DNA from: an uncultured Planctomycetota bacterium
GTDB lineage: Bacteria > Planctomycetota > Planctomycetia > Isosphaerales > Isosphaeraceae
Direction of reading: 5' to 3'
Length of the DNA stretch: 64,000 bases
NCBI GenBank assembly: GCA_963737655.1
Contig: CAVTTN010000002.1
Location: 5,472,001 to 5,536,000 of the forward strand
The notes below the pieces were generated by a model. That model had not been told where the DNA came from. It did no database searches and saw only the letters and a program-made list of their open reading frames with translations. The position numbers and the translations under genes are program-made. Below, piece by piece: positions 3,973-22,995 of this stretch; within the stretch, counting starts at the first letter, position 1; each line of letters opens with the position of its first letter.

Positions 3973-4332
3973 ATGACCAAACTTTGCCCGTATTGCGCCG
4001 AGGAGATCAAGTCCGAGGCGGTCAAGTGCAAGCATTGCGGGTCGTGGGTCGATGGTCGGCCCGAGGGGCCGGTTCATGCGATCGACTCGGCCCCTCATGC
4101 CGATCCGTCGGCGATGCCGTTTGCCAAGAGGCGGCTGGTCCGGTCGTCCTCGGACTCGATGATCTCGGGGGTTTGCGGGGGGATCGGGCATTACCTGGGG
4201 ATCGACCCGACGTTGATCCGGGTGGCCTATGTCGTGGGGACGATCTTCACGGCCGTGATCCCGGGGGTCCTGGTGTATCTCGGGCTCTGGCTGGTGATCC
4301 CCAAGGACATTCATGCGGGCGGGATCTCTTGA
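3973..4332 (+). CDS. PspC-domain protein with N-terminal zinc ribbon
   Basis: CPYC..CKHC, then LVRSSSDSMISGVCGGIGHYLGIDPTLIRV. Confidence 0.9.
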   Translation: MTKLCPYCAEEIKSEAVKCKHCGSWVDGRPEGPVHAIDSAPHADPSAMPFAKRRLVRSSSDSMISGVCGGIGHYLGIDPTLIRVAYVVGTIFTAVIPGVLVYLGLWLVIPKDIHAGGIS

Positions 4333-4366
4333 TCGCCGACCCCCCGGGATGGGAGAATCTCCGGCG

Positions 4367-4636
4367 ATGACGACCCGGACCGGCCTGATCTTGCGGACGG
4401 TCGGCCCCCTGATCGAGATCCTCTGCCTCTCGGCCCTGTTCCGGCTGGGGGGCGAGGATCGCCCGATCGGCGGGTTCTCGCTCCGCGGCCTCCTGCTGAT
4501 GGGGATGGCCGCCGGGCTCGCGATGGTCGTGGCCGGGCTCGCCTTGCCGAGGAAGACGTACCGGTCCCGCAAGCCCTCCGACGACGAGGAAAACGGCCGG
4601 GGGCCCAAGGATACGGACATTCGCCTTCGCCTTTGA
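4367..4636 (+). CDS. Small hypothetical membrane protein
   Basis: Two hydrophobic segments; GGGAGA RBS before ATG. Confidence 0.55.
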   Translation: MTTRTGLILRTVGPLIEILCLSALFRLGGEDRPIGGFSLRGLLLMGMAAGLAMVVAGLALPRKTYRSRKPSDDEENGRGPKDTDIRLRL

Positions 4637-4763
4637 TCGGATCGAAACAGCACGGATCAGAACGGAACGACCACCCTTCTCTCCCGCCCTCGCGGCCTGA
4701 TCGCCCCGACCTCTCCCCCGGGCCGGGCCGCGAATCGTCCCATCCCGCAATCGTCGAGGTCCC

Positions 4764-5516
4764 ATGACGCCAGTTCCCCAGCTCGAGCGGGTCGATGGCG
4801 AGGGCGCCCTGGACGTCGGCCCGCCGAAGACGGCGGCTCGCGTCTATCGGTATTATGACCTGATCATGGCCGCGTTCGTGACGGTCCTGCTCTGCACCAA
4901 CCTGATCTCGGCGCCGAAGCGGGTGAGCCTCGGCGGGTTCACGTTCGGCGCCGGCGTGTTGTTCTTCCCGATCAGCTACCTGTTCGGAGACATCCTCACC
5001 GAGGTCTACGGCTACGCGAGGTCTCGCAAGGTGGTCTGGGCGGGGTTCGGGGCCCTGGTGTTCGCCACGATCGTGACCCAGGTGGTGCTGAACATGCCGG
5101 CCGACCCGTCGTGGAAGAACCAGGAGGCGTTCAAGGCGGTGTTCGGCGGGACGTGGCGGATCGTCCTGGCGTCGATGATCGGCTATTTCGCCGGGGAGTT
5201 CGTCAACTCGTTCACCCTGGCCAAGATGAAGGTCGCCACGAAGGGCCGGTTCCTCTGGATGAGGACCATCGGCTCGACGATGACCGGCGAGGCGGCCGAT
5301 TCGCTCCTGTTCTACCCCGTGGCGTTCCTCGGGATGCCCAGTTGGCCGGTCGAAAAAGTGCTCACGGTGATGGTCACGAACTACTGTTTGAAGGTAGCTT
5401 GGGAAATCCTGGCCACGCCGATGACGTATGGGATCGTCGGGTTCCTCAAGAAGGCCGAGTCCGAGGATTATTACGATATCCACACCGATTTCACGCCGTT
5501 TTCCCTCAAGACGTAG
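4764..5516 (+). CDS. Queuosine precursor transporter (VUT/YhhQ family)
   Basis: FPISYLFGDILTEVYG, RIVLASMIGY, WMRTIGST motifs. Confidence 0.9.
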   Translation: MTPVPQLERVDGEGALDVGPPKTAARVYRYYDLIMAAFVTVLLCTNLISAPKRVSLGGFTFGAGVLFFPISYLFGDILTEVYGYARSRKVVWAGFGALVFATIVTQVVLNMPADPSWKNQEAFKAVFGGTWRIVLASMIGYFAGEFVNSFTLAKMKVATKGRFLWMRTIGSTMTGEAADSLLFYPVAFLGMPSWPVEKVLTVMVTNYCLKVAWEILATPMTYGIVGFLKKAESEDYYDIHTDFTPFSLKT

Positions 5517-5668
5517 GGTGCATGAAATGCACCAACCACGCGGCGGCCACCGGGCCGCCTTCCTTTGTTCGCGTCCCCTGGTTTGGGTGGGTTGGGCGAA
5601 TCGCCCAGGGATCGGTAGGCGGCCCGGTGGCCGCCTCGGGTGAGTTTGGTGCATTTCATGCACCCTAC
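5513..5668. repeat. REP doublet (REPIN-like), family GTAGGGTGCATGAAATGCACC
   Basis: 21-mer at 5513 and its reverse complement at 5648-5668, with complementary inner arms. Confidence 0.9.
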
Positions 5669-5678
5669 GGGTGATCTC

Positions 5679-6247
5679 ATGCTCACACTGCTGATGATGG
5701 TCGTCCTGGAGGGCCCCGCGACGAGCCGTTGCGGGCCGAGCTCAAGGCGATGGTCTCGGCCGATCAGGACGCCCGGAAGGCCGCGATCGCGTCGAAATTC
5801 GAGGACAAGAAGGCCATTGAGGCGATGCAGGCGATCGACCGGAAGAACACGACGAGGCTCAAGGCGATCGTCGAGGAGAAGGGCTGGCCGGGGAAGTCTC
5901 TCGTGGGCGAAGATGGCGCCCACGAGGCCTGGCTCCTGGTCCAGCATGCGGACCTCGACCGCCCGTTCCAGAAGAAATGCCTCGACCTGCTGAAGGAGGC
6001 CGTCGCCAAGGAGGAGGCCAAGGGCTCGGACCTCGCGTACCTGACCGACCGCGTCCTCGTGGCCGAGGGGAAGAAGCAGAGGTACGGGACGCAGTTCGTC
6101 GGCCAGGGGGACGCGATGAAGCCCTCGCCGATCGAGGACGAGGCGAACGTGGACCAACGGCGGAAGGAGGTCGGCCTGGGGACGATGGCCGAATATCGCG
6201 AGCGGCTCCGCCAGGTGTATCGAGCCGACCCGGCCAAGAAACCTTGA
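5679..6247 (+). CDS. DUF6624-like protein (frameshift near 5720)
   Basis: DQDAR..GWPGKSLVGEDGAHEAWLLVQHAD..AYLTDR..QRYGTQ; hydrophobic N-terminus lies in an adjacent frame. Confidence 0.75.
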
Positions 6248-6277
6248 GAACCCTCGACTCGAACGGAGTCCCCTCCG

Positions 6278-8115
6278 ATGTGCGGAATCGTCGGCTACAC
6301 CGGCCCCCACGAGGCCACCCCGATCCTCCTGGCCGGCCTGCGGAGGCTCGAATATCGCGGATACGACAGCGCGGGCGTTGCGATCGTCGCCGACGGCCGG
6401 ATGGACGTCCGCAAGAAGGCCGGTCGCGTCCGGATGCTCGAAGAGGCGCTCGACCAGGAGCCGCCCGCGGTTCGTGCGGGATGGGCCACACCCGATGGGC
6501 CACCCACGGGCCTCCCAGCGACCGCAACGCCCACCCCCACGTCGGCGGGACCGGCGAGGTCGCCGTCGTCCACAACGGCGTGATCGAGAACCACTCGGCG
6601 CTCCGCAAGGAGCTGGAATCCGAAGGGTTCCGCTTCCACACCCAGACCGATACCGAGGTCGTCGCCCACCTGATCGCCCGCGAGCTCCGCGACGACCCCG
6701 CGAATGACCTGTTCGCGGCCGTCCAGCGCGCGTTGCCCCACCTCGAAGGGACGTATGGGCTGGCCGTCGTCAGCCCGAAATCGCCGGGCCTGATCGTGGG
6801 CGCAAGGCTGGGCAGCCCGCTGGTCGTCGGCGTGGGCGAGGGGGAGCATTTCCTCGCCAGCGACGCCTCGGCGATCGTCCACCACACGCCCGACGTGGCG
6901 TACTTGCAGGATGGCGAGGTCGTCCGCCTCACGCCCGATGACTTCGAGATCCGCCATCGCGAGCGGGGGCCGATCACGCCGAGGATCGACCGCCTCGACT
7001 GGAAGCCCGACGCCGTCGAGCTCGGCGGGTTCACGCACTACATGCAGAAGGAGATCCACGAGCAGCCGGACACCGTCCGCGACGCCTGCCGAGGCCGCCT
7101 CCGCCGGGCCGAGGCCACCGCCCTCTTCGGCGGCCTGAACATGACCGCCCGGCAACTGCGGAGGGTCCGCCGGGTGGTCTTCGCCGCGTGCGGGACGAGC
7201 TGGCACGCGGCCCTCGTGGGCGAATACCTGATCGAGAGGCTGGCGCATCTGCCCGTCGAGGTGGAATACGCGAGCGAATTCCGATATCGGAACGCCCCTC
7301 TGGATGACCGGACGCTCGTGTTCGTCCTCAGCCAGTCCGGCGAGACGGCCGACACCCTGGGCGCCCTCCGAGAGGCGAAGAGGCGAGGGCACCCGACGTT
7401 GGCGATCGTCAACACGGTCGGGAGCACGATCGCGAGGGAGGCCGACGGCGGGATCTATCTCCACGCCGGGCCCGAGGTCGGCGTGGCGAGCACCAAGGCG
7501 TTCTCGGCCCAGGTGATGGTGTTGACCCTGCTCGCCCTCCAGCTCGGCCGGTTGCGGCACCTGCCCTATACCGACGGCCTCGCGGTCCTCGACGCCATCG
7601 AGGCGGCGCCCGAGGCGATCGCCGCCGCCCTGGCCACCGAGCCCGCGGTGATCGAGGCGGCCGAGGCGATCGCCGGGGGGCGGAGCGTCCTCTACCTCGG
7701 CCGGGACCTGCATTACCCGGTCGCCCTGGAAGGGGCGCTGAAGCTCAAGGAGATCAGCTATCTCCACGCCGAGGGCTACCCCACGGCCGAGATGAAGCAC
7801 GGGCCGATCGCCCTGATCGACCCCTCCACGCCGAGCATCTTCATCGCCCCCAAAGGCCCCCTGCACGCCAAGACGCTCAGCAACATCGAGGAAGTCCGGG
7901 CGAGGAAGGGGCCGGTCCTGTCCGTGGGGACCGAGGGAGACGACGCGCTGAGGTCGATCTCCGACCGCTTCCTCTCCATCCCCGACGTCCCCGAGGTCGT
8001 CCAGCCGCTGGTGGCCGTCATCCCGTTGCAGCTTTTGGCGTATCATGTCGCCAGGTTGAGGGGCTGTGACATCGACAAGCCGCGTAATTTGGCCAAGAGC
8101 GTGACGGTGGAGTGA
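6278..8115 (+). CDS. glmS: Glutamine--fructose-6-phosphate aminotransferase (frameshift near 6470)
   Basis: MCGIVGY..RLEYRGYDSAG, then GHTRWATHG, SQSGETADT, KPRNLAKSVTVE. Confidence 0.97.
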
Positions 8116-8260
8116 CGCGGAGCGACGAGGGGAATCGGGCGAGGGGCGAGCTTCGCGAAGTTTTTGCTTGATCCGGGGCCGTGGGCTCCGGGACATTGGT
8201 TCGTGTCACCGAGGCCGCCGTTCGTCGGCCTCTCGACCGACGGTCCCGGGAGGCCGCTTC

Positions 8261-8584
8261 ATGTCCGCCCCGATCGCGACACGCATCAGTAAGAAGACGT
8301 TCGTCGTCAATCGCCAGAATTGCTTCTACGTCCGAGGCAAGAATTTCCTCAAGGCCAGCCTCGTCTCGGTCAAGGCCGACCAGTTCTCCTGGGTCCGGGT
8401 GTGGATGGACCCCGTGATCGACGACGATTGCGTCCTGATCCGGGGGATGCCCCGGTTCAACAACCTCCCTCAGCCGAAGCCGACCTCGACGACCCTCTCC
8501 GACGACCGGATCGTCATCACTCTGGCCGTCGGCGACAACGTCGGCGTCTATGACGTGGATGTGAAGTACAAATTCATCCCCTGA
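8261..8584 (+). CDS. Small IPT/TIG-like (Ig-fold) protein A
   Basis: GGGAGG RBS; PIATRIS..YVRGKNF..W..RGMP..IVITL..KY pattern shared with neighbours. Confidence 0.6.
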   Translation: MSAPIATRISKKTFVVNRQNCFYVRGKNFLKASLVSVKADQFSWVRVWMDPVIDDDCVLIRGMPRFNNLPQPKPTSTTLSDDRIVITLAVGDNVGVYDVDVKYKFIP

Positions 8585-8618
8585 TCGAATCGCGGCCCCA
8601 AGCCCCGGGAGACGATCC

Positions 8619-8972
8619 ATGAGCGTGCCGAACCCGACCACGTTGACGGCGAAGAATACGGACGCGAAGTACACCTCGGGCTCCGACGGGGTGTTCTGGG
8701 TCGATGGGGACACCTTATTGCCCTATACGTCGATCCAGATCAACGAGACGAAGGCGAGCGGGTGGACCTGGACCGATATCTACATCGATACGGCGGCCTC
8801 GTCCGCGGCCCACCTGGTCGTCCACGCCACGCCGTGGGAGACGATGGGCGGAGGGACCGACGGCGACGAGTCCAAGGACCACCCGTTCCTGCCGGGGGAC
8901 GTGCTGATCGTGGTCAGCAACGACGACGGCGCGAGCACGACCAACCCCCACACCCAGATCACCTATTACTGA
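8619..8972 (+). CDS. Small IPT/TIG-like protein B
   Basis: WVDGDTL..WTW..HATP..PGDVLIVVSNDDG..TYY. Confidence 0.65.
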   Translation: MSVPNPTTLTAKNTDAKYTSGSDGVFWVDGDTLLPYTSIQINETKASGWTWTDIYIDTAASSAAHLVVHATPWETMGGGTDGDESKDHPFLPGDVLIVVSNDDGASTTNPHTQITYY

Positions 8973-9068
8973 GCACGAAGCGCCCGATGAGGGCCGATCG
9001 CAGGGCCTCCTCGACGTTCGAGGTGGGCCTCCGCGCGGCCCGTCTATTCCCGGTGAGGAGAACGACCG

Positions 9069-9386
9069 ATGGCCCGGCCCGTCCTCAGCAAGATCGACAG
9101 CAGCACGGACTTTACCTGCGACACGGATACAACAATCCTGATCTCGGGGACCGACCTCGATCACCTCACGGGGGTGGAGATTTCGGCGACCAGTCGGGTG
9201 CACTGGGTGAAGAGTTCGTGGAGCTATCTCCAGAAAAGCAATCAGTTATCCGTCACGGCGATCCCCTGCAAGAGGCACAAGGATGATCTCCTGAAGAAAG
9301 GAGGAGTCCCGGGCGACGTGATCATCGTGGCCAGCAACAACGACGGGTCGGGGACGCTCGGCACCAACGCCACCTACACCGCCTGA
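9069..9386 (+). CDS. Small IPT/TIG-like protein C
   Basis: PVLSKID..ISGTDL..PGDVIIVASNNDGSGTLGTNATY. Confidence 0.7.
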   Translation: MARPVLSKIDSSTDFTCDTDTTILISGTDLDHLTGVEISATSRVHWVKSSWSYLQKSNQLSVTAIPCKRHKDDLLKKGGVPGDVIIVASNNDGSGTLGTNATYTA

Positions 9387-9488
9387 TCCCGATCCGGGGC
9401 GGAACGGGCCCGGGCGCCCGCCCGTTCGGTGGTTTCGCCCCCGCGTGTCCCCTCTCGCCGAACCCCCCTCCGAAACCGAGGCCCGTCG

Positions 9489-9839
9489 ATGGCTCGCCCG
9501 AAGCTCACCATGATCTCCCCTCTCGATTTTCAGATCGATCAGCCGATCACCTTCACGATCGAAGGGGAGAATCTTGACGCCGTGAATTCCATCCATGTCA
9601 GCTCGACCCTGCCGGTCGATTCGCGAGGCCGAAACGTCGTGCAATGGGCAAGCATTCATATTCAAAATAATATGGACGGGAAAATCCGATGCACGGCGAC
9701 CCCGCACCGGGTCCAGCAGGTGATGGCCGGGTGCGAGGGGGTGCCCGTGGTCGCCGCCTTACCGGGCGACGTGATCGTGGTGGCCGACGGCGGCGGCGGC
9801 TCGGCGACTCTGGGCACCAACGCAACGTATAACGGCTAA
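9489..9839 (+). CDS. Small IPT/TIG-like protein D
   Basis: PKLTMISP..TIEGENL..PGDVIVVADGGGGSATLGTNATY; paralog of C. Confidence 0.7.
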   Translation: MARPKLTMISPLDFQIDQPITFTIEGENLDAVNSIHVSSTLPVDSRGRNVVQWASIHIQNNMDGKIRCTATPHRVQQVMAGCEGVPVVAALPGDVIVVADGGGGSATLGTNATYNG

Positions 9840-9907
9840 AATTCCGAACACCCGAGGGGACGGACCCTTCGTCCAGGAAGGGCCCGTCCCATTTCTTGTT
9901 CGGAATT
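9840..9907. terminator. Hairpin between convergent genes (possible bidirectional terminator)
   Basis: AATTCCGAACA...TGTTCGGAATT outer stem and GGGACGGACCCTTC/GAAGGGCCCGTCCC inner stem fill the intergenic gap. Confidence 0.55.
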
Positions 9908-9908
9908 G

Positions 9909-12572
9909 TCAACGGGCCGGGCCCTTGCCGGACTGGTGTTCTTGTAGGGCCTTGAGGTCGATCGGGCTCTTCGGGTTGGCCGCCAGGACGCGTTGCTGGT
10001 GGCCGATCGCCTCCGAGAGGAGGGCGGAGGCGCGGGCCGCGTCGGGCTCGTGGCCGGCGAGGCGGCCGAGGACCCGGCCCATCAGGCTGTGGTATTCGGT
10101 GTTCCGGTCGTTGTCCTTCAGGAGGGCGCCCAGGAGGCCGCGGGCTTCGTTCAGGTCGGCGAGGGCATCGGCCTTGCGGTCGAGGAGGTCGAGCGTCTCG
10201 GAGCGTCGGAGGAGGACCTCGGCGAGCTCCCGGCGGAAGAAGGTGATCGAGGGCACCTGCGTCTGAAGGTCGCGGAGCCGGGCGACCGCCTGGGTCTGGT
10301 CCTCCAGGGCGGAGGCGCGACGGGCCGGGTCGGCCGAGGCGAACCGGGCGGGCCAGGCCAGGGCCTGGGCCAGACGGTACTGGCGGGCGAGGTCTCGGGG
10401 TTGTTCCTTCGATCGTCGTTCGGCCAGGGCCCGGGTTTTCTGGAAGACGGGGAGGGCGTCGGCCTCTCGGCCGGCTTCGGCGTGGAGGGCCCCGAGGAAC
10501 AAGAGGGCCTCGACCCACTCGTCGCCGTCGGTCACCAGGGCGTCGCCCAGCCCCTCGAACAGACGGGCCCCGTCGGCGGCGGGGGTTTCGGCCTCGCCCG
10601 GCCGTCCGGTCCGGAAGAGGGTGAAGGCCAGGTGGAGCGAGGCCCGGGCCCGGAGCCGGCGGACGTCCGGCGAGTCGCGGACCTCGGGCCGGAGGCGGTC
10701 GGCCACGGCGAGGATCTCGCGATACCGGGGCTCGGCGTCCCCCAGCTTCCCTTCGAGGAAATCCAGGGTCGCGAACTCGCCGAGGACCTCCGCCCGGGCG
10801 ACCTCCAGAGGAGTGGTGTCCCCGGGGTGGTTCCGTCGCAAGAAATCCAGGGGCAGGAGCGCGTCATTGAGGAGCGAGCGGGCCACGCCGATCTGGTCGG
10901 TGATCCTCCGGAGGTTCGCCAGCCGGCGATAGGTCCGCGAGACCTCGACCTGCATCGGGATGCTGGTCCGGCCGAGCTTCTTGAGCTCGCGGACGTGATT
11001 CTGGGCTCGGTTCGCGAACTTTTCGCGGGTGTTCTGGCCCTGGGCGTCTCGCCCCAGGTCGATCTCGGCGATGCCGAAGATCTCGTCCAGCAGCTTCGCG
11101 TCCTCTCGGGCGAGCGTCTCGATCTCGTTCCGGGCGTTGACGGCCTCCTGCCTCTTCTCCTCGGTCCGGCCCTTCTCCCGGTAGATCAGGGCCGAGCCGA
11201 TCCCCAGGGCGAGGACCGAGGCGACCAGCAGGACGATCGTCCCGGCCACGGCCGGCTGATGGTGCCGGGCCCATCGGGCGGCCCGGGCGGGCCACGGCTC
11301 GCGGAGGGCGGACACCGGCTCGTCGGCCAGCCATCGTCGGACCTCCTCGCCCACCTCCTTCGCCGTCTCGTACCGCCTCTCGGGCTGCGGGTCCATCGCC
11401 TTCAGGCAGATCGCCTCCAGGGCCGGCGGGATCGAGCCGTCCAGCGACCGCGGCGACGGCGGCCTCGCCTCGATCGCCAGGCGGATCACCTCCGCCGAGC
11501 TCCCGCCGTCGTACGGCGGCCTGCCGGTGAGGACCAGGTACAGAAGGGCGCCGAGGCCGAAGACGTCGCTTCGCTGGTTGATGCGCGGGCGGTCTCCGGC
11601 GGCCTGCTCCGGCGGCATGTAGTTGGGCGTGCCGATCGCCTGGCCCGGCTCGGTCGCCCCTCGCGTGGAGTCCGGCCCGCGGTCCTCGCCCGGCGCCGCC
11701 TCGGCCAGAGGGTCGTCGGGCCGGTCGAGCCGCTTGGCCAGGCCCCAGTCGAGCACCACCACCTCGCCATACGGCCCCAGCGCCACGTTCTGGCCCTTGA
11801 TGTCCCGGTGGATCACCCCCCGCGAGTGCGCGAACGCCACCGCGTTGCTGACCGCGACGAACGACTCGAGAAGGACGCGCAAACCGGCCTTCGTGGCCCC
11901 GGGGTCGAGCTTCCCGGCGTGGTGGTCGCGGACGGCGTCCTTGAGCGTCTTTTTGCCCAGGAGCCTCATGCTGTAGAACGGCCGTTCGGTCCACTCGGAC
12001 AGGTCGTGGACCGGGACGATGTTGGGGTGCTCCAGCGAGGCGGCGACCCGGGCTTCCTCGAGGAATCGGGCCTCCAGGCCGGGCGAGAGGGCGCGGTCGG
12101 GCCTCAGGTCCTTGACGGCGACCTCCCGGCCGAGGACCGAGTCCCACGCCCGCCAGACCCGGCCCAGGCCGCCTCCGGCGTGGAACACCGGATCGCGATA
12201 CCTGGAGCCGAACTCCTGGTCGTTCCCCCCGAGATCGCCCGCCCCCTCGGCGGCGTGGCCGTCGATCGTGGGGAGCTGCGACAGGGCGATGTCGCCGGAG
12301 TCGGACGGGTCGGGACGATCCTCGACCAGGCCGAGGCGGCCGTCTCCCCCGGGGGCGACCGTGCTTCGAGCGGCCCCGTTGGTCTCCTGGAGGGCGTGCT
12401 CGACGGTCGAGACCTCCTCGTCGGACAGCCATCGGTGCTCGGCGAGGACCTCGGCCAGCGTGCTCGACGGCCGGGACAGCCATTGCTCGACGGCCTCGGC
12501 CAGTTGGCTCGGGTCGATCAGCCCCTTCTTCAGCGCGAGCAGGCCGAAACGGAGGTTGCGGTCGGCGTCCAT
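9909..12572 (-). CDS. Hanks-type Ser/Thr protein kinase with TM helix and TPR-like C-terminus (kinase 1)
   Basis: GGLGRV, VAVK, HRDIKGQN, DWG, YMPPEQ, SDVFGLG; TM VAGTIVLLVASVLALGIG; helical repeats. Confidence 0.93.
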   Translation of the reverse strand: MDADRNLRFGLLALKKGLIDPSQLAEAVEQWLSRPSSTLAEVLAEHRWLSDEEVSTVEHALQETNGAARSTVAPGGDGRLGLVEDRPDPSDSGDIALSQLPTIDGHAAEGAGDLGGNDQEFGSRYRDPVFHAGGGLGRVWRAWDSVLGREVAVKDLRPDRALSPGLEARFLEEARVAASLEHPNIVPVHDLSEWTERPFYSMRLLGKKTLKDAVRDHHAGKLDPGATKAGLRVLLESFVAVSNAVAFAHSRGVIHRDIKGQNVALGPYGEVVVLDWGLAKRLDRPDDPLAEAAPGEDRGPDSTRGATEPGQAIGTPNYMPPEQAAGDRPRINQRSDVFGLGALLYLVLTGRPPYDGGSSAEVIRLAIEARPPSPRSLDGSIPPALEAICLKAMDPQPERRYETAKEVGEEVRRWLADEPVSALREPWPARAARWARHHQPAVAGTIVLLVASVLALGIGSALIYREKGRTEEKRQEAVNARNEIETLAREDAKLLDEIFGIAEIDLGRDAQGQNTREKFANRAQNHVRELKKLGRTSIPMQVEVSRTYRRLANLRRITDQIGVARSLLNDALLPLDFLRRNHPGDTTPLEVARAEVLGEFATLDFLEGKLGDAEPRYREILAVADRLRPEVRDSPDVRRLRARASLHLAFTLFRTGRPGEAETPAADGARLFEGLGDALVTDGDEWVEALLFLGALHAEAGREADALPVFQKTRALAERRSKEQPRDLARQYRLAQALAWPARFASADPARRASALEDQTQAVARLRDLQTQVPSITFFRRELAEVLLRRSETLDLLDRKADALADLNEARGLLGALLKDNDRNTEYHSLMGRVLGRLAGHEPDAARASALLSEAIGHQQRVLAANPKSPIDLKALQEHQSGKGPAR

Positions 12573-12783
12573 CGTCGGCTCCCACCGGCCCCAAACGGGT
12601 CTCGATCCGATCGCGGAGGTTACGAGAGTAAACGAGCCGACGCTCCGCCGCAATCGGCAGAAAACGGCCGAATTTCCTTGATTCGGGCGAGGCGCAGCCC
12701 TTACGGTAGTTTCGGGCGGCGACGAGGCCGCCCGCGCTTCGAGTTCCAGTGAGATCGAGCAACCGATTGACCGGGAGGGTCCC

Positions 12784-13542
12784 ATGCCAGCGCCGGGTGT
12801 GTATTACTTCGTCGTGAGGAATGGGTGTCTGCTCGCCAGCGAGACGGGCCGCGAGAACCCGATCGTAATCTATGGACATGGGTTCGACCCGGTCTCCGCC
12901 CATTTCAAGGTCCACGGCGAAGGGATCGACTTCCACGACTTCAAGGCCCTCGTGGTCACCGACGCGGAGTTCCACGGGTCGTTCGTAGCCCAGATCTGCA
13001 AGGGCGAGAATCTCCCGGCCTCGGTGAGTCTGAAGGTGTGGGTCTCCAACGGCCACGGCCAACGGAGCCAGGATACCGACGTCGTCGCCCTGCACGACGC
13101 CGCCGCCTCTCCGTCGGACGGGGAGTTCGATGAGGACGGCCCCGAGTCCGTCGGGCGGAGGCCGCAGGACCGCCGGCGCGTCGTCACGAACCCCTGTACC
13201 GTCACGTTCTCCATGCCCCCCTCAGACCAGATCGTCTACGGGACCGACGCGACCCCGCAGGACAATAACATCCGCATCGAAGGCGAGAACTTCCAGTCCA
13301 CGGACACGTTCACCTGCTCTTCGTTGGTCGCCAACCTGAGTGCACCGAAGGTCACCTCGAACGACGGTTACACGATCATGGGTAAGTTCAAGGCGGGCTC
13401 GGGGTACGGCAGCGGCGACATGACGGTGACGGTCACCAACTGCAACACGGCGGTCCGCCACGGCGTTTCCACCAGGGCCGCACAAACCCAGCTTTCCTCC
13501 GAGGAGGAGATCCTCGTGGTCGAGGTTGAGGACGGCCGTTGA
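12784..13542 (+). CDS. Two-domain IPT/TIG-like protein E
   Basis: IVIYGHGF..LKVWVSN and IRIEGENF..GDMTVTVTN repeats; GGGAGG RBS. Confidence 0.65.
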   Translation: MPAPGVYYFVVRNGCLLASETGRENPIVIYGHGFDPVSAHFKVHGEGIDFHDFKALVVTDAEFHGSFVAQICKGENLPASVSLKVWVSNGHGQRSQDTDVVALHDAAASPSDGEFDEDGPESVGRRPQDRRRVVTNPCTVTFSMPPSDQIVYGTDATPQDNNIRIEGENFQSTDTFTCSSLVANLSAPKVTSNDGYTIMGKFKAGSGYGSGDMTVTVTNCNTAVRHGVSTRAAQTQLSSEEEILVVEVEDGR

Positions 13543-13581
13543 AGACGCTCCCCCGGACCCCTTCCCGCGAGGTTCCCACCC

Positions 13582-14316
13582 ATGCCCGCGCCTGTCGTTA
13601 GCGGTTTCACGGTCAACTCCGGGACGCTGGTCGCCTCGCCGACCGGATCGACCAACACGATCACGATCTTCGGGTCGAATTTCGACCTGGCGGACTCGAC
13701 GTTCAAGCTCACCGGAGGGGGCGTCGCGTTCTCGGGCTACGTCGTCACGTCCCGGACGGCGATGCAGATCAAGGGCACGTTCCTGGCCTCGGTGGCGTCG
13801 TCGCCGTCGCCGTCGCCGGGCTTCCTGATGGGGACGAGCTCGGATGCCGACCTGGTGGTGACCGTCACCAACGGGTCGAGCAGCCTGGACCAGCCCACCC
13901 CGGTGGCGGTGCCGACGGTCCACCCGGTCTTCCCGGAGGACGAAGTTTATCCCAGGGTGGCCGGGGGCAGTCCCGGCAACTCGTTCTCCCTGAACGGGGC
14001 CGTCCCCCCGGCCACGGGGACGCTCAATTATTCGACCATGGCCCCGGCGGCGAATAACTCGGTGACGATCACCGGCTCGGGCTTCGGCGCGTCGCCGGGC
14101 GGTTCGCTGTCGTGCTCGGCCGGCGGGTTCACGTTCTCGACGCCGGCGGTCGCATCGTGGTCCGATACCCAGATCCGCGCGAGCTTCACGGCGATGAAGG
14201 CCGGGCCGAACGAGTACAACGACTCCGACCTGACGATCACGGTCACCAACGGCGCGGGCATCCCGATCCTGGAGCAGGTCCCGACGAAGCTGGTCAACCC
14301 GCCGGGCAATGCCTGA
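13582..14316 (+). CDS. Two-domain IPT/TIG-like protein F
   Basis: PVVSGF..ITIFGSNF..DLVVTVTN and VTITGSGFG..SWSDTQI..DLTITVTN (classic IPT signatures). Confidence 0.75.
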   Translation: MPAPVVSGFTVNSGTLVASPTGSTNTITIFGSNFDLADSTFKLTGGGVAFSGYVVTSRTAMQIKGTFLASVASSPSPSPGFLMGTSSDADLVVTVTNGSSSLDQPTPVAVPTVHPVFPEDEVYPRVAGGSPGNSFSLNGAVPPATGTLNYSTMAPAANNSVTITGSGFGASPGGSLSCSAGGFTFSTPAVASWSDTQIRASFTAMKAGPNEYNDSDLTITVTNGAGIPILEQVPTKLVNPPGNA

Positions 14317-14331
14317 AGTCCGCCGCGGGGT

Positions 14332-16964
14332 TCATGGACCCGGCGGCGTCGGCCCGAGGCGGCGGAGGTCTTCCTCGATCCTCTGGGCGGTGGCGCGGTC
14401 CTCGGGGTCGGCCGGCTGGAGTTGGAGGGCCTTCGCCTCCTGGAGCCAGGCGGAGGCGCGATCGGTCCGGTGGAGGTCCAGGGCCAGGCGGGCCCGGGCC
14501 TCCAGGGCCCGGGCGAGCTCGCCGTCGAGGGTGCGGACCTTGGGGAAACGAACGCGGAGGTCCTTCAGCATCTCGGCCTCTCGGCGGAACTCGTCGTCGG
14601 CCGCCTCGGGCTGGCCCGAGTCGATCAAGAGCCGGCCCTTGTCGTCGTGGGCCTGGGCCAGGTTCAGGCGGAAGTGGATCACCTGCGGCCTGTCCTCGAC
14701 GATCGCGGCGATCTCCCCGATCGCCCGGTCGAACAGTCCGCTCGCCTCGGCCCGGGAGGCCGGCTGAAGGGCCAGGGCCCGGCCGAGCTCCACTCGGGAC
14801 ATGGCCAGGAGGAACCGGACGTCCACGCCCGGGGCGCCCCGGGCCGCCTCGGACTCCGCCCAGGCCAGGGCGCGGCGGAGCATCCTGGCCGAGTCGTCGA
14901 GCCGGCCCTCGGAACGGTAGATCGCGCCCCTCTCCTTCAGGCTCAGGGCGGCCACGAGCCGATAGGGCCTGTCCGGGGAGTCCAGGTCCGGCAGGAGCCG
15001 CTCCAGGGCCTGGTCCATCAGGGCACCGGCCTCGGCGGCGCGGCCCTGGCGAGTGAGCAGGCTGGCCCGGTGGGCCAGGATCCGCCCCTCGGTCCGGCGG
15101 TAGTTGGGTTCGTCGGGGATGAACCGCCGGAGCTCGCCGATGATCGCGCCGGCCTGGCGATACTCCTCGGCGGCGGCGGCGCGATCGCCTTTGCGGTCCC
15201 ACATCGTGCCGAACTCCAGGTGGAGCTCGGCCAGGCGGTCGCGGTCCCCGGGGGTCATCTGGTCCTCCGGGGCGATCTCCCTGGCCAGCCGGATGGCCTC
15301 GAAGTAGTCGATCCGGGCGAGGTCGAACTCGAAGGTCATCCGGTGGAGGTTCCCGGCTTCGAGGAAGAAGTTCAGGGCGACCTTCTTGACCCGGGCATCC
15401 TCGTCATTGAGCTGCGTCAGGGCCTTGCCGACCCGGGCGAGCCGGTTGGCGACCTGGGTGCGGACGCCCTCGGCGTCGGGCAGCAGAGGCAAGTTCTCGC
15501 GGAGCAGGCCGAGCGTCTCGGACAGGCCATCGAGCGAGGAGTGGAGGGTGCCCACGGCGGCCTTGCGGGACTCGTCCGCCCGGTAAGCCGCGTCGCTGGC
15601 CTTCTGCGTCTCCAGGCCGAGCCGCCAGGCCCCCAGGGCCAGGGCGACCGTCGCCGTGATCAGGATGGCCGTGCTCCCGGCCATCATCGACTGGTGATGC
15701 CTCGCCCACCGCGCCGCCCTGTCGATCATCCGGCCCGGGTACGCTTCGACCGGCTCGTCGGCCAGCCATCGTCGGACCTCCTCGCCCACCTCCTTCGCCG
15801 TCTCGTACCGCCTCTCGGGCTGCGGGTCCATCGCCTTCAGGCAGATCGCCTCCAGGGCCGGCGGGATCGAGCCGTCCAGCGACCGCGGCGACGGCGGCCT
15901 CGCCTCGATCGCCAGGCGGATCACCTCCGCCGAGCTCCCGCCGTCGTACGGCGGCCTGCCGGTGAGGACCAGGTACAGAAGGGCCCCCAGGCCGAAGACG
16001 TCGCTTCGCTCGCCGATCCGCGGGCGGTCTCCGGCGGCCTGCTCCGGCGGCATGTAGTTGGGCGTGCCGATCGCCTGGCCCGGCTCGGTCGCCCCTCGCG
16101 TGGAGTCCGGCCCGCGGTCCTCGCCCGGCGCCGCCTCGGCCAGAGGGTCGTCGGGCCGGTCGAGCCGCTTGGCCAGGCCCCAGTCGAGCACGACCACCTC
16201 GCCATACGGCCCCAACGCCACGTTCTGGCCCTTGATGTCCCGGTGGATCACCCCCCGCGAGTGCGCGAACGCCACCGCGTTGCTGACCGCGACGAACGAC
16301 TCGAGCAACGCCCGGAGCCCCTTCGCCGAGCGCCCCCGCCGTCCTTGCGGTGGTGGTCGCGGACGGCGTCCTTGAGCGTCCGGTCCCCCAGGAGCCTCAT
16401 GCTGTAGAACGGCCGTTCGGTCCACTCGGACAGGTCGTGGACCGGGACGATGTTGGGGTGCTCCAGTCCCGCCGTCACCCGGGCTTCCTCCAGGAATCGG
16501 GCCGCCAGGCCGGGGGTGAAGGCGCGTTCGGGCCGGAGGTCTTTCAGGGCGACCTCCCGGCCGAGGACCGAGTCCCACGCCCGCCAGACCCGGCCGAGCC
16601 CTCCGCAGGCGTGGAGCCTCAGGTCGCGATAGCGCGAGCCGAAGCCCCGGCCGTCGGCCTCGTCGTCCAGGCCGGCGGCGACCGCCGACCCGCCCGAGGG
16701 AGACCAGTCCTTCGTGGATAACTCCGAGGGGGAGTCGGCCCGGGACGAGTCGTCGGGATGGGTGGATCGGCCCTCGTCGTCGAGCTCATGCTCCACGGTC
16801 GAGACCTCCTCGTCGCTCAGCCAGCCGCGATCCCCAAGGACCTGGGCGAGCGGTCGCTCCGGGCAGGCCAGCCAGTCCTCTCCGGCCTCGACCAGTTGTC
16901 CCGGATCGATCAGGCCCCGGCGGACGGCCATCAGGCCGAATCGGAAGTTGCGGTCGGCGTCCAT
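14332..16964 (-). CDS. Ser/Thr protein kinase with TM and TPR-like C-terminus (kinase 2; frameshift near 16335)
   Basis: MDADRN start as in kinase 1; N-lobe in ORF 16248-16964, HRDIKGQN/DWG and TPR region in ORF 14332-16578. Confidence 0.9.
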
Positions 16965-17454
16965 CGTCGGCTCCCGGGGCGGTCTCGGGGGAAGGCCGGG
17001 CGGGATCGGCTTTCACCCCGTCGGCGACGTCCCCGCCAACCAGGATAACCGTCGCAGGCCGCCGGACGGAGGAGAAAGTCGGAACGGATTGGGGCCGATC
17101 GGGCACTGACCCTGGATTCCGGAGATCGGCGCGACGGGAAGCCGCATGGAGGATGCCGCCGTCCTCGAACCGGCGAGGCGAAGAGGCCCTCTCGATCGCC
17201 CCCCGGGCCTCTTGCGGCTCCGCCACCCCGGTCCTCGACCCGGGGGAGCCGAATCGAGGCGACCCCGGAACGAAATCGCCAGAATCCCGGGCCCGACCCG
17301 GGGCGATTCGACGATTCCCCGGAGAGACCGCCCGATTGACCGCGCGGAACGGGTGCCGTACATTCCAGTTCCTGCCTCGCGACGATGGATCTGATCCTCC
17401 GCCTCGCGTCGTTCCGCGTCCTGCCGCCTCGCTCCCCAGAGGAGTCTACCCCTC

Positions 17455-18732
17455 ATGACGGGTCCCAATCGTCGGACGTTCCTCGCCAGCGCCGGCTCGG
17501 GGGCCGCGGCCCTGGCGCTGCCCTCGCTGGCCCGAGCTTCCGTCGGGCCGAATGACCGGATTCACGTCGCCGTCCTGGGCATCCGCAGCCGGGGGCAGTC
17601 GCACATCGACGCCTTCACCAAGCACAAGGAGACCGCCGTCGTCGCCCTGGTCGACCCGGACAGCCGCCTCTTCGCCGGGTCGAGCAAGAAGGTCGAGGAC
17701 CGCTCGGGCAAGGCCCCTCAGCTCGTCTCGGACCTCCGGCGGATCATGGACGACAAGGCCATCGACGTCGTCTCGATCGCCACGCCCAACCACTGGCACG
17801 CGCTGGCCTCCGTCTGGGCGATCCAGGCCGGCAAGGATGTTTACGTGGAGAAGCCGGTCAGTCATAACGTCAGCGAGGGGCGGAAGATCGCCGACGCCGC
17901 GAAGACGCACAACCGGATCGTCCAGGCCGGGACGCAGAACCGCTCGTCCGAGGGCGTGAAGTCGGCGATGGAGTTCCTCCACTCGGGCAAGCTCGGCAAG
18001 GTCTACCTGGCCAAGGGCCTCTGCTACAAGAGGCGCGACTCGATCGGCCACAAGGCGGATGCGCCGGTGCCCGAGGGGGTCGATTACAACGTCTGGCTCG
18101 GCCCCGCGCCGGAGAAGCCGTTCAACCCGAACCGCTTCCACTACGAATGGCACTGGAACTGGGACTACGGCGGGGGGGACATCGCCAACCAGGGCATCCA
18201 CCAGATGGACCTCGCCCGCTGGGGCCTGAACAAGGGGCTGCCCGACCACATCGTCTCCTCGGGCGGCCGATACGGCTACCAGGACGACGGCGAGACGCCC
18301 AACACGCAGGTCGCCGCGTTCAAGTACGACGATTGCCTCCTGGAATTCGAGGTCCGCGGCCTGCCCACCAACGCCGAATCCGGCGTGAAGGTCGGCAACC
18401 TGTTCTACGGGACAGAAGGCGTGCTCGTCCTGAACGAAGGCAAGTGGGAGACATTCCTCGGCCACAAGAACGAGCCCGGACCCAAAGGCCAGGGCCACGG
18501 AGGCGGCGACCACTTCGCCAACTTCATCGAGGCCGTCAAGGCGCGAGACCCGAAAAAGCTAAACGCGGAGGTCGTCGAGGGGCACCTCTCCAGCGCCCTC
18601 TGCCACCTCGCGAACATCTCCTACCGCCTCGGCCGCGCCCTGAAGTTCGACCCCAAGGCCGAAAACTTCGGCGGAGACTCTGAGGCGAACGCCATGCTGA
18701 CCCGAGAATATCGGTCGCCGTTCGCGATGTAG
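17455..18732 (+). CDS. Gfo/Idh/MocA oxidoreductase, Tat-exported
   Basis: NRRTFL Tat motif; IATPNHWH, GKDVYVEKP, GIHQMD. Confidence 0.92.
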   Translation: MTGPNRRTFLASAGSGAAALALPSLARASVGPNDRIHVAVLGIRSRGQSHIDAFTKHKETAVVALVDPDSRLFAGSSKKVEDRSGKAPQLVSDLRRIMDDKAIDVVSIATPNHWHALASVWAIQAGKDVYVEKPVSHNVSEGRKIADAAKTHNRIVQAGTQNRSSEGVKSAMEFLHSGKLGKVYLAKGLCYKRRDSIGHKADAPVPEGVDYNVWLGPAPEKPFNPNRFHYEWHWNWDYGGGDIANQGIHQMDLARWGLNKGLPDHIVSSGGRYGYQDDGETPNTQVAAFKYDDCLLEFEVRGLPTNAESGVKVGNLFYGTEGVLVLNEGKWETFLGHKNEPGPKGQGHGGGDHFANFIEAVKARDPKKLNAEVVEGHLSSALCHLANISYRLGRALKFDPKAENFGGDSEANAMLTREYRSPFAM

Positions 18733-18898
18733 GGTGCATGAAATGCACCACCCACAATGCGGCGGGCCTCGCCCGCCTCCCGCTCTCGACCACGCCTCAT
18801 AAGGGCCATTCTGGAGCAAGGTAGGCGGGCGAGGCCCGCCGCATTGTGGGTGGTGCATTTCATGCACCCTACACGACGGTGCATTTCATGCACCCTGC
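18729..18898. repeat. REP triplet (doublet plus extra reverse unit), GTAGGGTGCATGAAATGCACC family
   Basis: Units at 18729, 18852-18872 and 18878-18898. Confidence 0.9.
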
Positions 18899-18899
18899 A

Positions 18900-19940
18900 T
18901 CACTTCTTCGCCCAGGGGCTTTGCGGATAGAGCTGCTTGAGCCGCTCGTGGACCTCGGCGGCCCGGCCGTCCTGCTTGATCTCGGTGAAGAGCTGCTCGA
19001 TCATGGCCAGGGCCCGGGGGTGCTGCTCCTTGTCCTTATCGAAGAGGACGTCGGTCTTCAGGTAGGCGAGGAGGGCGTCTTTCCTCCGGCCGGCGGCCCG
19101 GTAGCAATCGCCCAGGGTGTTGTGGGCGAGGGCCTGGACGTCGGCGGCCTCGGGCGGGGCCTCCTTGATGACCTCCTGGACGTTCGCCAGGGCGTCGTCG
19201 TACTTCTTCTGCATGACGAGCGCCTCGGCCTTGGCGAGCTTGGCCTCGCGGGCCTGGGCCGAGCCCTTGGGGGCGGTCAGCAAGATCTTGTCGAGCCCGG
19301 CGATGGCCAGGTCGGGCTTGCCCGACTTCGCCTGGACCCTCGCCTTCAGGACTCCGACCCGGCCCGAGGCGGTCGTGACCTTCTCCGAAAGCTGAGAGAG
19401 GGCGGCGTCGGCCTTCGCGGTCTCCCCTTTCTGGAGGCTCAGGCGGATGATGAGCTCCAGGGCCGGGCCGAGCTGGCGGGCGTTCGGGGCGGACTTGACG
19501 AAGGCGTCGAGCTCCTCCAGGGCCGAGGCCGCCTTGGTCGGGTCGGCCAGCGCCTCCTCGGCCAGGATGTTCGCCCTCTTGAACCGGGCGGACTGGGCGA
19601 TGTAGGGCTTGGTGGCGGCCTCGGTGGCGGCCTTCTTGTAGAGGTCGGCGGCGTCCTTGAGCTGGCCGTTGTTCTCGCGGGTCTCGGCCAGGGCGTAGCT
19701 CGGCGGGGCGCCGTCATAGGTCACGTCGGCGATCTGATCGACGGGGACGAGCTGATCGGCGCCGACGGCCGGCTTGATCTTCACCTCGGCGGGGGTCTCC
19801 GTGGAGATCTGCCCGCGGATTCGCCCGCCTGCGGCCTTGACGGTGGAATTGGGGATCAGCACGATTTCATCGGCCAGCGCGAGGGTCGAGAGGCCGACGG
19901 TCAGGCCGAGGGACAGGCACGCGGCGGTTCGCCGAGTCAT
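18900..19940 (-). CDS. Secreted TPR-like protein
   Basis: Signal peptide (..TLALA-DE); helical repeats, AHNTLGDCY..ALLAYL. Confidence 0.8.
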   Translation of the reverse strand: MTRRTAACLSLGLTVGLSTLALADEIVLIPNSTVKAAGGRIRGQISTETPAEVKIKPAVGADQLVPVDQIADVTYDGAPPSYALAETRENNGQLKDAADLYKKAATEAATKPYIAQSARFKRANILAEEALADPTKAASALEELDAFVKSAPNARQLGPALELIIRLSLQKGETAKADAALSQLSEKVTTASGRVGVLKARVQAKSGKPDLAIAGLDKILLTAPKGSAQAREAKLAKAEALVMQKKYDDALANVQEVIKEAPPEAADVQALAHNTLGDCYRAAGRRKDALLAYLKTDVLFDKDKEQHPRALAMIEQLFTEIKQDGRAAEVHERLKQLYPQSPWAKK

Positions 19941-19995
19941 GACGGGGGGTCCTTGGGTCGGTTTTTCGGGCGAGGCCGGTCCTCGCCGAGTTCCA

Positions 19996-20026
19996 CCCTC
20001 TCCCCCGAAGCAAGCGGGGGAGAGGG
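19996..20026. repeat. CCCTCTCCCCCG...CGGGGGAGAGGG palindromic repeat
   Basis: Same hairpin at 28026 (both followed by CGTC(C)AGAAGC) and at 23685. Confidence 0.7.
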
Positions 20027-20063
20027 CGTCCAGAAGCCGATTCCGCGGCGGGTGAGGCCCGCG

Positions 20064-22869
20064 TTATTTGCCCAGCTCCTTCAGGAGGCCGACGTACTTG
20101 GCCTTCATCTCGGGCTTGCCGACCGACGGGCTGAGCTTCATCACGCGTTCGAGGCTGGTCACGGCCTCGGCCCGGCGTCCCTGGCCGGTCTGGGCGATGG
20201 CCATGTGGTACACGCTGTCGTAATACTCCAGGGGCTTGGTCCGGTAGCGGCTGAGGTCGGCGACCCGCTCCTTCCAGTAGGCGAAGGCGACGTTCCACCG
20301 CTCCAGGCTCCGTTCGGCGCGGGCCCAGTCCTCGTACAGGAAGCCCTTCTCCATCATCAGGGTGAGGTCGCGCGGGCTGGCGGTCAGGAGTTCCTTGTCG
20401 AGCGCCAGGGCGTCCTCGAACTTGTTGGCCTCGCGGAGGGCCACGGCCTTCTTGTACTTGAGATAGGCGAGGCTGGTGGCGGCCTTGGGGTCCTTGAGGA
20501 ACTCGGGGTCCTTGCCGAACCGGGTGAGCATGGAGTCGAACACGGGGACGGCCTCCGCCCCCATGCCCATCTCGATCATGGCGCTGCCGGCGAAGAGGAG
20601 GGACTGGTACGTCTGGCCCGACTGGCTGGTCGCCAGGGCCGTGAGGAACTTCTTGAACGACTCGCGGGTCTTCTTGTAGCCGACGGCGTCATTCCGGGCC
20701 TTCTGGGCCTCCATGTCCTCCTTCAAACGCATGGTCAGGTCGTAATACAGGCCGGTGAGCTTCTCCTTGGTGCTCCCGGCCTTTTCCAGAGTCTTGAGGT
20801 CGGCGATGGCCCGGTCGGTCTGGCCGTCGCCGAGGTGGGCCTTGAGCAGGATCGTCACGAGCGCCTCGTACAGCGGGGCGAGCTCGGCCGACTGCGACGC
20901 CCCGGCCAGGGTCTTCTCCAGGGGTTCGAGGAGGGCGAGCGCCTCCTTCGGCTTGCCCGTGGCGCGGAGGATCTCGGCCACGTCGGTCGAGTTGCGGACC
21001 AGGGCCGGGTCGGTGGCCGGGGCCCCGGCCTTCTTGCGGGCCTCCAGGGCCGAGGATTCGAGGTCCAGCGCCGCCTTGCCCTGGGCCTCGGCCTCGGACC
21101 CCTTGTCCTCCTCGCGGAGCTTCTGGGCGAGCCTCCAGAGCGCCTCCCCGGCCATCATCTGGGCGTCGAGCCGGCGGGGGGACTCGGCCCGGACTCCTTC
21201 ATACGACTTCGCCGCCCTCACGTACTCCTGGCGGCCGAAATAGATCTCCCCGAGGGTGACGCGGGCGGCGTCTCCCTGGTCCTTGTCGCTCCAGGTCTCG
21301 GCGGCGAAGGAGGCGAGGTCGATCAGGCGGTCGAGGTCGCTCGTCCGGTCGATCTCCACATACGTGTTGTACGCCATCGTCAGGGCCGCGATGCCGATAT
21401 CGACGGCCTTCAAGGACCATTCGTCCTGGGGATACCGCCGGACGAGGTGATCGCAGATCGCGGCGGCGGAATAGTACCTCTGGGCCGAGTATTCGCAGTA
21501 GGCGAGGAAGTAGCGGGCCTTGTTCGCCTTGGCGGGTTCCCGGGCGGGGTCGGCCCTCTTGATGGCCTGCTGGAACAGCTTGATGGCGCGGTCCCATTCG
21601 TGGGTGCTCATCGCCGAATCGGCCTGGGCCATCGCCTCGTCATACGTCATGGCGGCGATCTGGCGGTCGTCGACGTCGCCGCCGATCTTGAACTTGTCGC
21701 GGATCTCCTTGCGGAGGACCAGGGCCTCGGCCTTGTACGGCGAGAAGTAGCGGACGACCTCATCCAGCCGCGCCAGGGCCTTGCGGGCGGCCTCCTTCTG
21801 GTCCTTCTCGTTGAGCTCGTCGAGCTGGGCCTTCAGGGCCCGGGCCAATTCGAGCTGGACGCCCAGGCCGGACTCGCTGGAGAGATACCGAGGGTTGTCC
21901 TGGAGCCATCGGGCGGCCTCGTCCACCGCGAGGGCATACTCCTTCCTCTTGTTATCGACGATGATCCGGAAGAAGCCGATCCGCCGCCTCATCTCGTTGT
22001 AGATGGGGTCGTTCATCGGCTGGGCGAAGAGCTCGTTGTAGATGCCCATCGCCGGGCCGAGCTCCCCTTTTTCCTCGTAGCACTTGCCCTGGAGCATCCG
22101 GGCGGAGAGGCCGGCGAGCTGCGACCGGTAGTCCTTGTACACGATCTCGAACGCGGCGATGGCCTTGTCCAGGAGGTCGTTCCTCTCCTTCGAGCCGAGC
22201 GGCCAGGACTGCGCGTCCTCGTAATCGACCACCGTCCTCTGGAGGCGGGCGTCCATCAGGGCGGTGTGCGGCGCGCTCCTTCGAGTCCTTCGCCGGGTTC
22301 CCCTCGGGGATGAATTTTGGGAAGGACTCGAACGCCTTCTGCAAGAGGGGCAACGCGCGCTCGTAGGCGGCGCGGGCCTCGACGAACGAGGCGCGGGCGG
22401 AGGTCAGCTTGGCCTTCTCCTCGGCCCCCTTGAGATCGCGGGACTGGACGAGGTCGGTATGCCCCCGCTCGACGAACAAGCGGGCGAGCTGCGTGAGGGC
22501 CTCGGGCGTGAGCGGGTGATCGGGGTTCTTGCGGGCGAACTCGTCGAGCTTCGCGCGGGCCGAGTCCAGGAGGGCCGTCTTGGTCTCCAGGTTGTTGGAG
22601 ACGGTCGCCTCTTCCAGGAGCCCCCGGCCGACCTGGTAATCGAGCGTGACCTTCAAGTCGGCGGGCGCGGCGGGGTCTTTGCGGAGGCTTTCGAGGTACT
22701 CCAGGGCGAGGTCATGATAGCCCCGTTCGCGCAAGCCCTGGGCGAACTTCAGGGCCTGGCGGGCCTCGGGCGACATCTCGTCGGCGGCCCGGACGAGCGA
22801 AGGAGCCAGGAAACCGGCCGCCACGACGGCCCAAAGCCCGGCGAGCGAGGCGCGACGGGGCATCTTCAT
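20064..22869 (-). CDS. Large secreted TPR protein (frameshift near 22270)
   Basis: Signal peptide MKMPRRASL..VRA in ORF 21952-22971 continues into TPR ORF 20064-22256. Confidence 0.75.
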
Positions 22870-22995
22870 GAGGAGGCTCCGGGGCGAGACGGGGCGTCCC
22901 CGGGGCCGGTCCGAACTCGTCCCGGCCCCCCGGGGCCGCGTGTGTCGAGAGCGTGGATGCGTTCGATCCAATCTACGGCGCCCGGAGGGGCCTCG

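Follow-up and report, generated by a model that had tools for sequence, protein, structure and literature searches.

Why should arrays of small immunoglobulin (Ig)-like genes converge on the genes of transmembrane Ser/Thr kinases in a planctomycete chromosome? This question is raised by a locus in a 64,000-nucleotide stretch of DNA (the window; contig CAVTTN010000002.1 of assembly GCA_963737655.1) from an uncultured member of the Isosphaeraceae, whose genome, G000, is 7.6 Mb and 88% complete. The interval from glmS to a Gfo/Idh gene is occupied by four genes for mini-proteins, or minis (A-D, plus strand), kinase 1 (minus), two further mini genes (E and F, plus) and kinase 2 (minus), with the result that six leaderless open reading frames (ORFs), carrying eight IPT-like domains in total, converge on two Hanks kinase-TM-TPR genes (TM, transmembrane). 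This layout had been described in an earlier note made from the sequence alone, and the ORFs of A-F and of both kinases were confirmed at the positions given there. Our analysis indicates that the locus holds a recurrent module in which the partner genes follow the type of TPR ectodomain of the kinase.

The tail-to-tail module was found as 22 units in 19 genomes, 17 of them in eight genera of the window's family and two in another family, with one to four minis per kinase unit. A search starting from the minis recovered G002 (same genus and same flanks, with two kinases and three plus one mini genes), G034 (another genus, with two units, one beside glmS) and G017, in which one mini converges on a kinase and another lies at a contig edge. 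The minis of G002 (L008:5441-6784) have, between their last strands, an insert that is basic, looks amphipathic and possibly binds membranes. When the search was started from the kinases, minis were present beside 3 of the 20 best-scoring kinases and 0 of the next 31; among the matches listed for metagenome kinases (32-49% identity), 0 of 80 had an IPT-family neighbour, many of the contigs being short. Within G000, which has about 104 kinase loci, this IPT family is confined to the locus under study, and the pairing there is therefore more than chance. Furthermore, the linkage survives changes of chromosomal site and a fall of ectodomain identity to 20-33% between genera, and it extends to the second family. 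At the ligA site of genus g31, a kinase with one or two minis is present in five genomes, neither is present in three and a remnant is left in one, and this joint presence and absence of kinase and partners supports a link between them. Identities within g31 are 81-90% for ligA, 67-74% for the kinase, 43-51% for the ectodomain and 17-29% for the partner, and across units the partners are far more variable than their kinases. G122 (L283:3744-4040) has a 98-amino-acid (aa) remnant with a mini-like end at a site where its relatives keep the whole module. These data indicate that the module is real, recurrent and fast-evolving, built on a known receptor class, and a selected functional pairing of kinase and minis is well supported.

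What the partner follows was examined with the ectodomains. Partnered kinases have a 424-460-aa ectodomain with a distinctive C-terminal end, and a profile of this end, trained on 11 partnered loci, was applied prospectively to kinases outside the training set. In the first batch, where a score above 50 bits defined a high scorer and the fixed filter was a leaderless, beta-rich, convergent ORF with a penultimate-strand motif, 6 of 17 high scorers passed (8 when judged by eye) and 0 of the 48 low scorers did; three of the latter had motif-less, enzyme-like leaderless neighbours and were left uncounted. For the second batch the filter was looser and combined with inspection by eye; it gave 2/5 against 0/14, with 1 of its 20 loci lacking a host ORF, and both positives belong to another family. 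Pooled over these untrained kinases, a leaderless beta-rich partner was found in 8/22 with this ectodomain end and in 0/62 without it (Fisher p 7e-6; 4e-4 when genus g31 enters as a single count). A hidden Markov model (HMM) of the whole ectodomain did not separate partnered kinases from others in leave-out tests, and the C-terminal end alone did. The 16 partnered kinases tested all fell in one 22-row clade of an ectodomain tree (SH-aLRT 89), whereas a kinase-domain tree of the same 60 rows forced at least two origins of partnered kinases; neither tree includes any ectodomain below 400 aa, the broken genes of G002, a WD40 kinase or a truncated kinase of G034. A single kinase lineage, as a first tree had it, was overturned by these larger trees. 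Judged from the profiles and trees, the partner follows the TPR ectodomain type and not the kinase domain.

Other ectodomain types have partners of other classes. Eight kinases facing genes with a weak likeness to the PEP-CTERM family form a separate ectodomain clade, a sister module whose partners are of another class. Their loci (L016, L018, L019, L022, L170, L172, L175 and L181) encode ectodomains of about 760-810 aa and converge on secreted PEP-CTERM-like beta proteins. Three other convergent partners (L174:3434-3634, L247:5028-5345 and L238:5361-6299), one of only 66 aa, have by eye an export-like leader, which matches no family and which we take to resemble the planctomycete export leader. 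Since these other ectodomain types face exported genes, the convergent partners of these kinases tend to be extracytoplasmic.

The two kinases of the window share one architecture. Kinase 1 (9909..12572, minus strand; 887 aa, intact) has an N-terminal helical domain, a Hanks kinase domain, one TM helix and a TPR-like ectodomain. Its Pkinase match (93.7 bits) is above the cut-off and the VAxK, HRD, D[FW]G and [AP]PE motifs are intact in both kinases, identifying both as probable Hanks-type Ser/Thr kinases. The single hydrophobic helix after the kinase domain (11184..11240, minus; mean hydropathy 2.49) is flanked by basic residues on the kinase side, which predicts a kinase domain on the cytoplasmic side and a periplasmic TPR part. 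The predicted periplasmic ectodomain (9912..11183, minus; 424 aa) is of the type that accompanies mini-partners, and its TPR profile matches reach E 1e-4 yet stay below the cut-offs. The N-terminal domain (12369..12572, minus) gave three weak matches to the MshEN cyclic di-GMP motif, including NF053729 at 15.8 bits (cut-off 38), and by Pfam MshEN matched 0/13 family members; this weak likeness is a lead that the domain is possibly a second input. Such an N-terminal MshEN-like domain (window 12369-12572 and 16761-16964) is common to many kinases of the family.

Kinase 2 (14332..16964, minus; 432-aa ectodomain) is split by a frameshift near 16330, with kinase motifs present across the break; the first description does not mention this split. 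The window has further frame breaks in glmS (6463-6508) and a TPR gene (22256-22971), and the kinases of G002 are broken too. Because glmS and 5 of the 104 kinase loci of G000 are also frameshifted, the break in kinase 2 is probably an assembly error rather than the mark of a pseudogene.

The two units had been called a duplicated module, and for the kinase domains this is apt (89% protein identity, and 94-100% DNA identity along some 500 nt), whereas identity is only 28% between the ectodomains and 11-23% between the minis of the two units. A recent segmental duplication was rejected, as the likeness between units is confined to the kinase cores. The conserved kinase core has been homogenised, in contrast to the 3' end and the neighbouring minis, which differ. 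Within the core, a 300-nt block of the C-lobe (11314..11613) is 98% identical to 15749-16048 and possibly serves as a recombination anchor.

The minis are compact. Mini-protein A (8261..8584, plus; 107 aa, one IPT-like domain, leaderless) is the most divergent of unit 1, scoring 17.6 bits by profile against 3.3 for the best shuffle. B (8619..8972, plus; 117 aa, IPT-like, acidic; 21.4 bits, best shuffle 16.7), C (9069..9386, plus; 105 aa) and D (9489..9839, plus; 116 aa, IPT-like) are paralogues. In unit 2, the leaderless E (12784..13542, plus; 252 aa) and the Ser/Thr-rich F (13582..14316, plus; 244 aa) have two IPT-like domains each and are 30% identical. An AlphaFold2 (AF2) model of C from a 14-row alignment was a seven-stranded sandwich with a pLDDT of 81, and a fold search with it returned Ig/E-set domains, the best being VIA (root-mean-square deviation 2.5, 83 residues aligned) at a Z of 8.4, within the range that the tool calls common, followed by a Met receptor fragment (Z 7.5) and the IPT/TIG domain of EBF3 (Z 7.0). 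Atlas features group C with 96-98-aa IPT/TIG clusters at 0.93; such standalone clusters are commonest in Acidobacteriota. By Pfam TIG (PF01833), only D (16.1 bits, E 0.011) and F (20.5 bits) matched, both under the 20.9 gathering cut-off, and 6 of 23 family domains matched at E<=1 (best 5.4e-6). An IPT HMM built from 19 domains outside the window recognised 7 of the 8 window domains at E<=0.02, domain 1 of E being weak (7.4 bits, best of 100 shuffles 3.0). The IPT motif proposed for all eight domains is kept loosely, with A, D and E domain 1 departing from it in the last strands. Together, the fold model of C and the profiles of the others suggest that the minis are Ig-like IPT/E-set domains of a divergent subfamily, in line with the fold first proposed. 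Moreover, neither an N-terminal hydrophobic stretch or TM segment nor a signal-like in-frame upstream extension was found in the minis, and their proposed lack of an evident signal peptide was borne out. Shadow ORFs were rejected, since homologues recur, purine runs resembling ribosome sites precede B-F and the fold of C is confident.

Relatives of the minis were scarce in direct searches. A protein-library search with F returned its own near-copy and one generic TIG protein, one with a B/C/D profile returned a single standalone relative (P0006), and one with profile A3 returned its inputs and no further relatives. A GTDB pattern scan with the IPT alignment gave no matches, and an IPT profile run over 401 genomes of the class gave no convincing match outside the window's family. 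This profile under-counts, because the ectodomain route later found two modules outside the family.

How might such a module work? The reading we favour, at slightly less than an even chance, is that of a polymorphic, swappable cassette of receptor ectodomain and partner, in which the minis are cognate ligands acting outside the cytoplasm. Each unit would consist of a single-pass Hanks kinase inside, a TPR solenoid of about 430 aa in the periplasm and one to four leaderless Ig-fold minis. As the tail-to-tail order places the ectodomain-coding end beside the minis, a single exchange within the conserved part of the kinase would replace ectodomain and minis together, the kinase gene's 3' half moving with the minis as one block, by analogy with toxin-immunity systems. 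The minis would reach the periplasm by a non-Sec route, perhaps released from lysing kin or delivered by a neighbouring cell, with type VI secretion (T6SS) as the leading candidate. Binding of a mini would then switch the kinase, which would phosphorylate a regulator encoded elsewhere. The open choice of the earlier note among ligands, adaptors and substrates is narrowed by the pairing with the ectodomain, and a ligand role fits better than a substrate role because the partner follows the ectodomain and the kinase cores of the window are near-identical. That minis bind ectodomains directly is a tentative proposal, not quite as probable as its opposite; a complex prediction for the kinase 1 ectodomain with C scored 0.00 (mark 0.32), which, for one of many possible pairs, speaks neither for nor against it.

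Several observations weigh against the ligand reading, beginning with location: without a signal peptide, the minis are by default cytoplasmic and lie across the membrane from the ectodomain. Small domains may suit the Hcp tube as cargo, and G000 has two Hcp/TssC T6SS clusters (C2:4010219-4025228 and 7527464-7534980), both unlinked to the module locus. Any Hcp was weakly enriched (14/17 module genomes against 60/104 others, p 0.06). A close relative of one G000 Hcp occurred in 12 of 16 other module genomes against 21 of 104 others, in 6/8 against 14/45 by genus, and within genera in 11 against 8.0 expected (p 0.01), counts in which kin are not independent, genomes are incomplete and the syntenic site was inspected for absence of the module in g31 alone. 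The cut-off for a close relative was fixed before the search and the query was picked after the any-Hcp result, which makes this co-occurrence, a point in favour of the reading, a post-hoc lead; no close relative was found in the module genomes G002, G017, G034 and G119. We consider T6SS delivery of the minis rather unlikely. A second group of objections concerns the pairing itself. The expected recurrence beside convergent kinase-TPR genes was seen, but IPT genes also occur without a kinase in two genera (three genomes of g68, and G114), and 12-14 of the 22 kinases with the typical ectodomain end have no mini partner. The ectodomain clade carries long-branch warnings and no starred support. 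The partners in g31, G142, G136 and G274 gave no convincing match to the window minis (hhalign 5%; HMM below 8 bits); they are beta-rich with similar ends, an Atlas model of one reaches TM 0.53-0.62 to Ig-like sandwiches, and the AF2 model of a g31 partner is poor (pLDDT 53), its best fold match at Z 5.4 being uninformative. Finally, the ectodomains of G135 and G138 are 77% identical and their partners 31%, which strains a strict lock-and-key pairing; for G138 and G022 the values are 69% and 64%.

Two loci have features of their own. G114 (L076:9702-10790) has three tandem IPT genes, the first broken, in 11.5 kb without a kinase. In G103 (L074:6888-9280), a mini faces a metallo-beta-lactamase-fold-like gene and a 238-aa gene, both absent at the corresponding G104 site.

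The minis might instead be the output of the kinase, which would sense an outside cue and activate the mini genes via an extracytoplasmic function (ECF) sigma factor or another regulator encoded elsewhere, the minis serving as structural, surface or secreted proteins. This alternative, which we give a modest chance, easily explains partner replacement under a conserved ectodomain and minis without kinases; it has a precedent in PknS/EcfK, where a kinase-TM-TPR protein phosphorylates an ECF (in the part of PMC13147305 consulted), and an ECF-like gene, with all its matches below cut-off, lies directly upstream of a partnered kinase in G142. It leaves unexplained why the partner class tracks the ectodomain rather than the kinase domain; by eye, moreover, no common promoter motif stood out in 19 upstream regions and no ECF sigma factor was seen among the ORFs at window positions 4000-22000, in agreement with the first description of the cluster. 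Were the minis cytoplasmic substrates or adaptors of the kinase domain, the problem of location would vanish, since they share its compartment, and many are Ser/Thr-rich (Ser+Thr 9-38%). However, the kinase domains of the window are near-identical over the C-lobe yet face unrelated minis, and the partnered kinases trace back to two or more lineages of kinase domain, leaving this role improbable.

Extreme variability, patchy presence and remnants, which are typical of arms races, could also point to a conflict module, in which variable minis would trap foreign proteins (phage or rival effectors) or serve as decoys for them, and the kinase would report the attack. PADLOC 2.0 matched 0 of 6 minis, and its matches to kinase 1 lay mainly in the shared kinase domain, model C3a189 reaching residue 711; the units are flanked by housekeeping genes (glmS, ligA, carA) rather than set in defence islands, and we regard this role as a still poorer prospect than that of substrate. 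Adjacent DNA recombines and travels together without any function, a further point against the ligand reading, and each part also occurs without the other, so that an old chance adjacency might simply have been carried along with the kinase 3' end. The persistence of the linkage across sites, divergent ectodomains and a second family, and the joint absence of kinase and minis at the g31 site, make such hitchhiking very unlikely.

The remaining features of the locus concern expression and surroundings. The gap between the stop codons of D and kinase 1 is filled by a long hairpin (9840..9907; -42 kcal/mol, z -6.4, equalled by 0 of 200 shuffles), which is likely a two-way terminator or stabiliser. 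Each unit had been thought to face its own kinase; the convergent layout agrees with this, but on their other side E/F diverge from kinase 1, which lies 211 bp away. No sigma-70 site turned up for the mini genes in a promoter scan. To the left lies glmS (6278..8115, plus), a flank shared with G002 and G034, and to the right a Gfo/Idh/MocA oxidoreductase gene with a Tat-like signal (17455..18732, plus), shared with G002. Short intergenic repeats resembling repetitive extragenic palindromic (REP) elements occur at window 18536-18870 and 5490-5680, and similar translated stretches recur in several frames.

For one class of ectodomain, the module gives concrete candidate ligands that are small and easy to express, and genera g1, g20 and g31 offer natural allelic series for specificity. 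More generally, matching each ectodomain class with its own convergent partner class (leaderless Ig, PEP-CTERM-like or export-leader peptides) may be a way to de-orphan receptors. The layout hints at a matched receptor-and-tag system, previously undescribed. A bolder version, which we think unlikely, is a bacterial allorecognition of the S-locus type, in which hypervariable leaderless Ig-fold tags would be passed to neighbours, for example as small T6SS cargo, read by the matching periplasmic TPR kinase and exchanged as cassettes; if true, it would be a kinase-based bacterial self/non-self system built from Ig folds. In the plant S-locus, the receptor kinase gene SRK is linked to the small variable ligand gene SCR, and the CdiA-CT/CdiI and Rhs toxin-immunity systems exchange 3'-end cassettes behind a conserved part. 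Compared with all of these, the folds of the present module are unrelated, no toxin domain was seen and the genes are convergent rather than co-transcribed.

As far as our literature search reaches, the module is new and the receptor class known; no description was found, subscription journals being mostly outside its reach and supplementary gene-neighbourhood tables outside its scope, and the consulted part of PMC8195603 contains no such module. According to the main text of PMC11032199, as far as consulted, TM kinases bearing TPR ectodomains number in the tens to hundreds in planctomycetes, and their function is mostly unknown; the text names no ligand or conserved partner gene for them and uses the word 'immunoglobulin' 0 times. 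These kinases resemble those of the window in architecture, predicted topology and large paralogue families. A periplasmic TPR topology and sensing have precedent there and in PMC13147305, in the sections available. The PknS-EcfK/ECF43 pairs (PMC13147305 and PMC7826278, both in part) are likewise kinase-TM-TPR systems, whose periplasmic part is needed for signalling and which are tied to T6SS, the signal of PknS being unknown according to the former; the window differs in having a convergent variable Ig partner instead of a co-encoded ECF, and so falls outside the definition of an ECF43 pair. In Proteus mirabilis, IdsD/IdsE (abstract of PMC4471559) are an adjacent, allele-variable gene pair, and the logic would be the same if minis were delivered to neighbours; the Ids proteins, however, bind via membrane-spanning subdomains, the abstract names no kinase, and their binding and T6SS export are proven, whereas those of the window minis are putative. 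Dictyostelium TgrB1/TgrC1 use hypervariable IPT/TIG domains for self/non-self recognition but, in the part of PMC12745789 consulted, are eukaryotic, multi-domain and membrane-anchored on both sides, in contrast to the soluble, leaderless minis and their TPR receptor. IdsD/IdsE and TgrB1/TgrC1 may thus be viewed as functional analogues of the module, neither as a homologue, and the likeness to Tgr as an analogy only.

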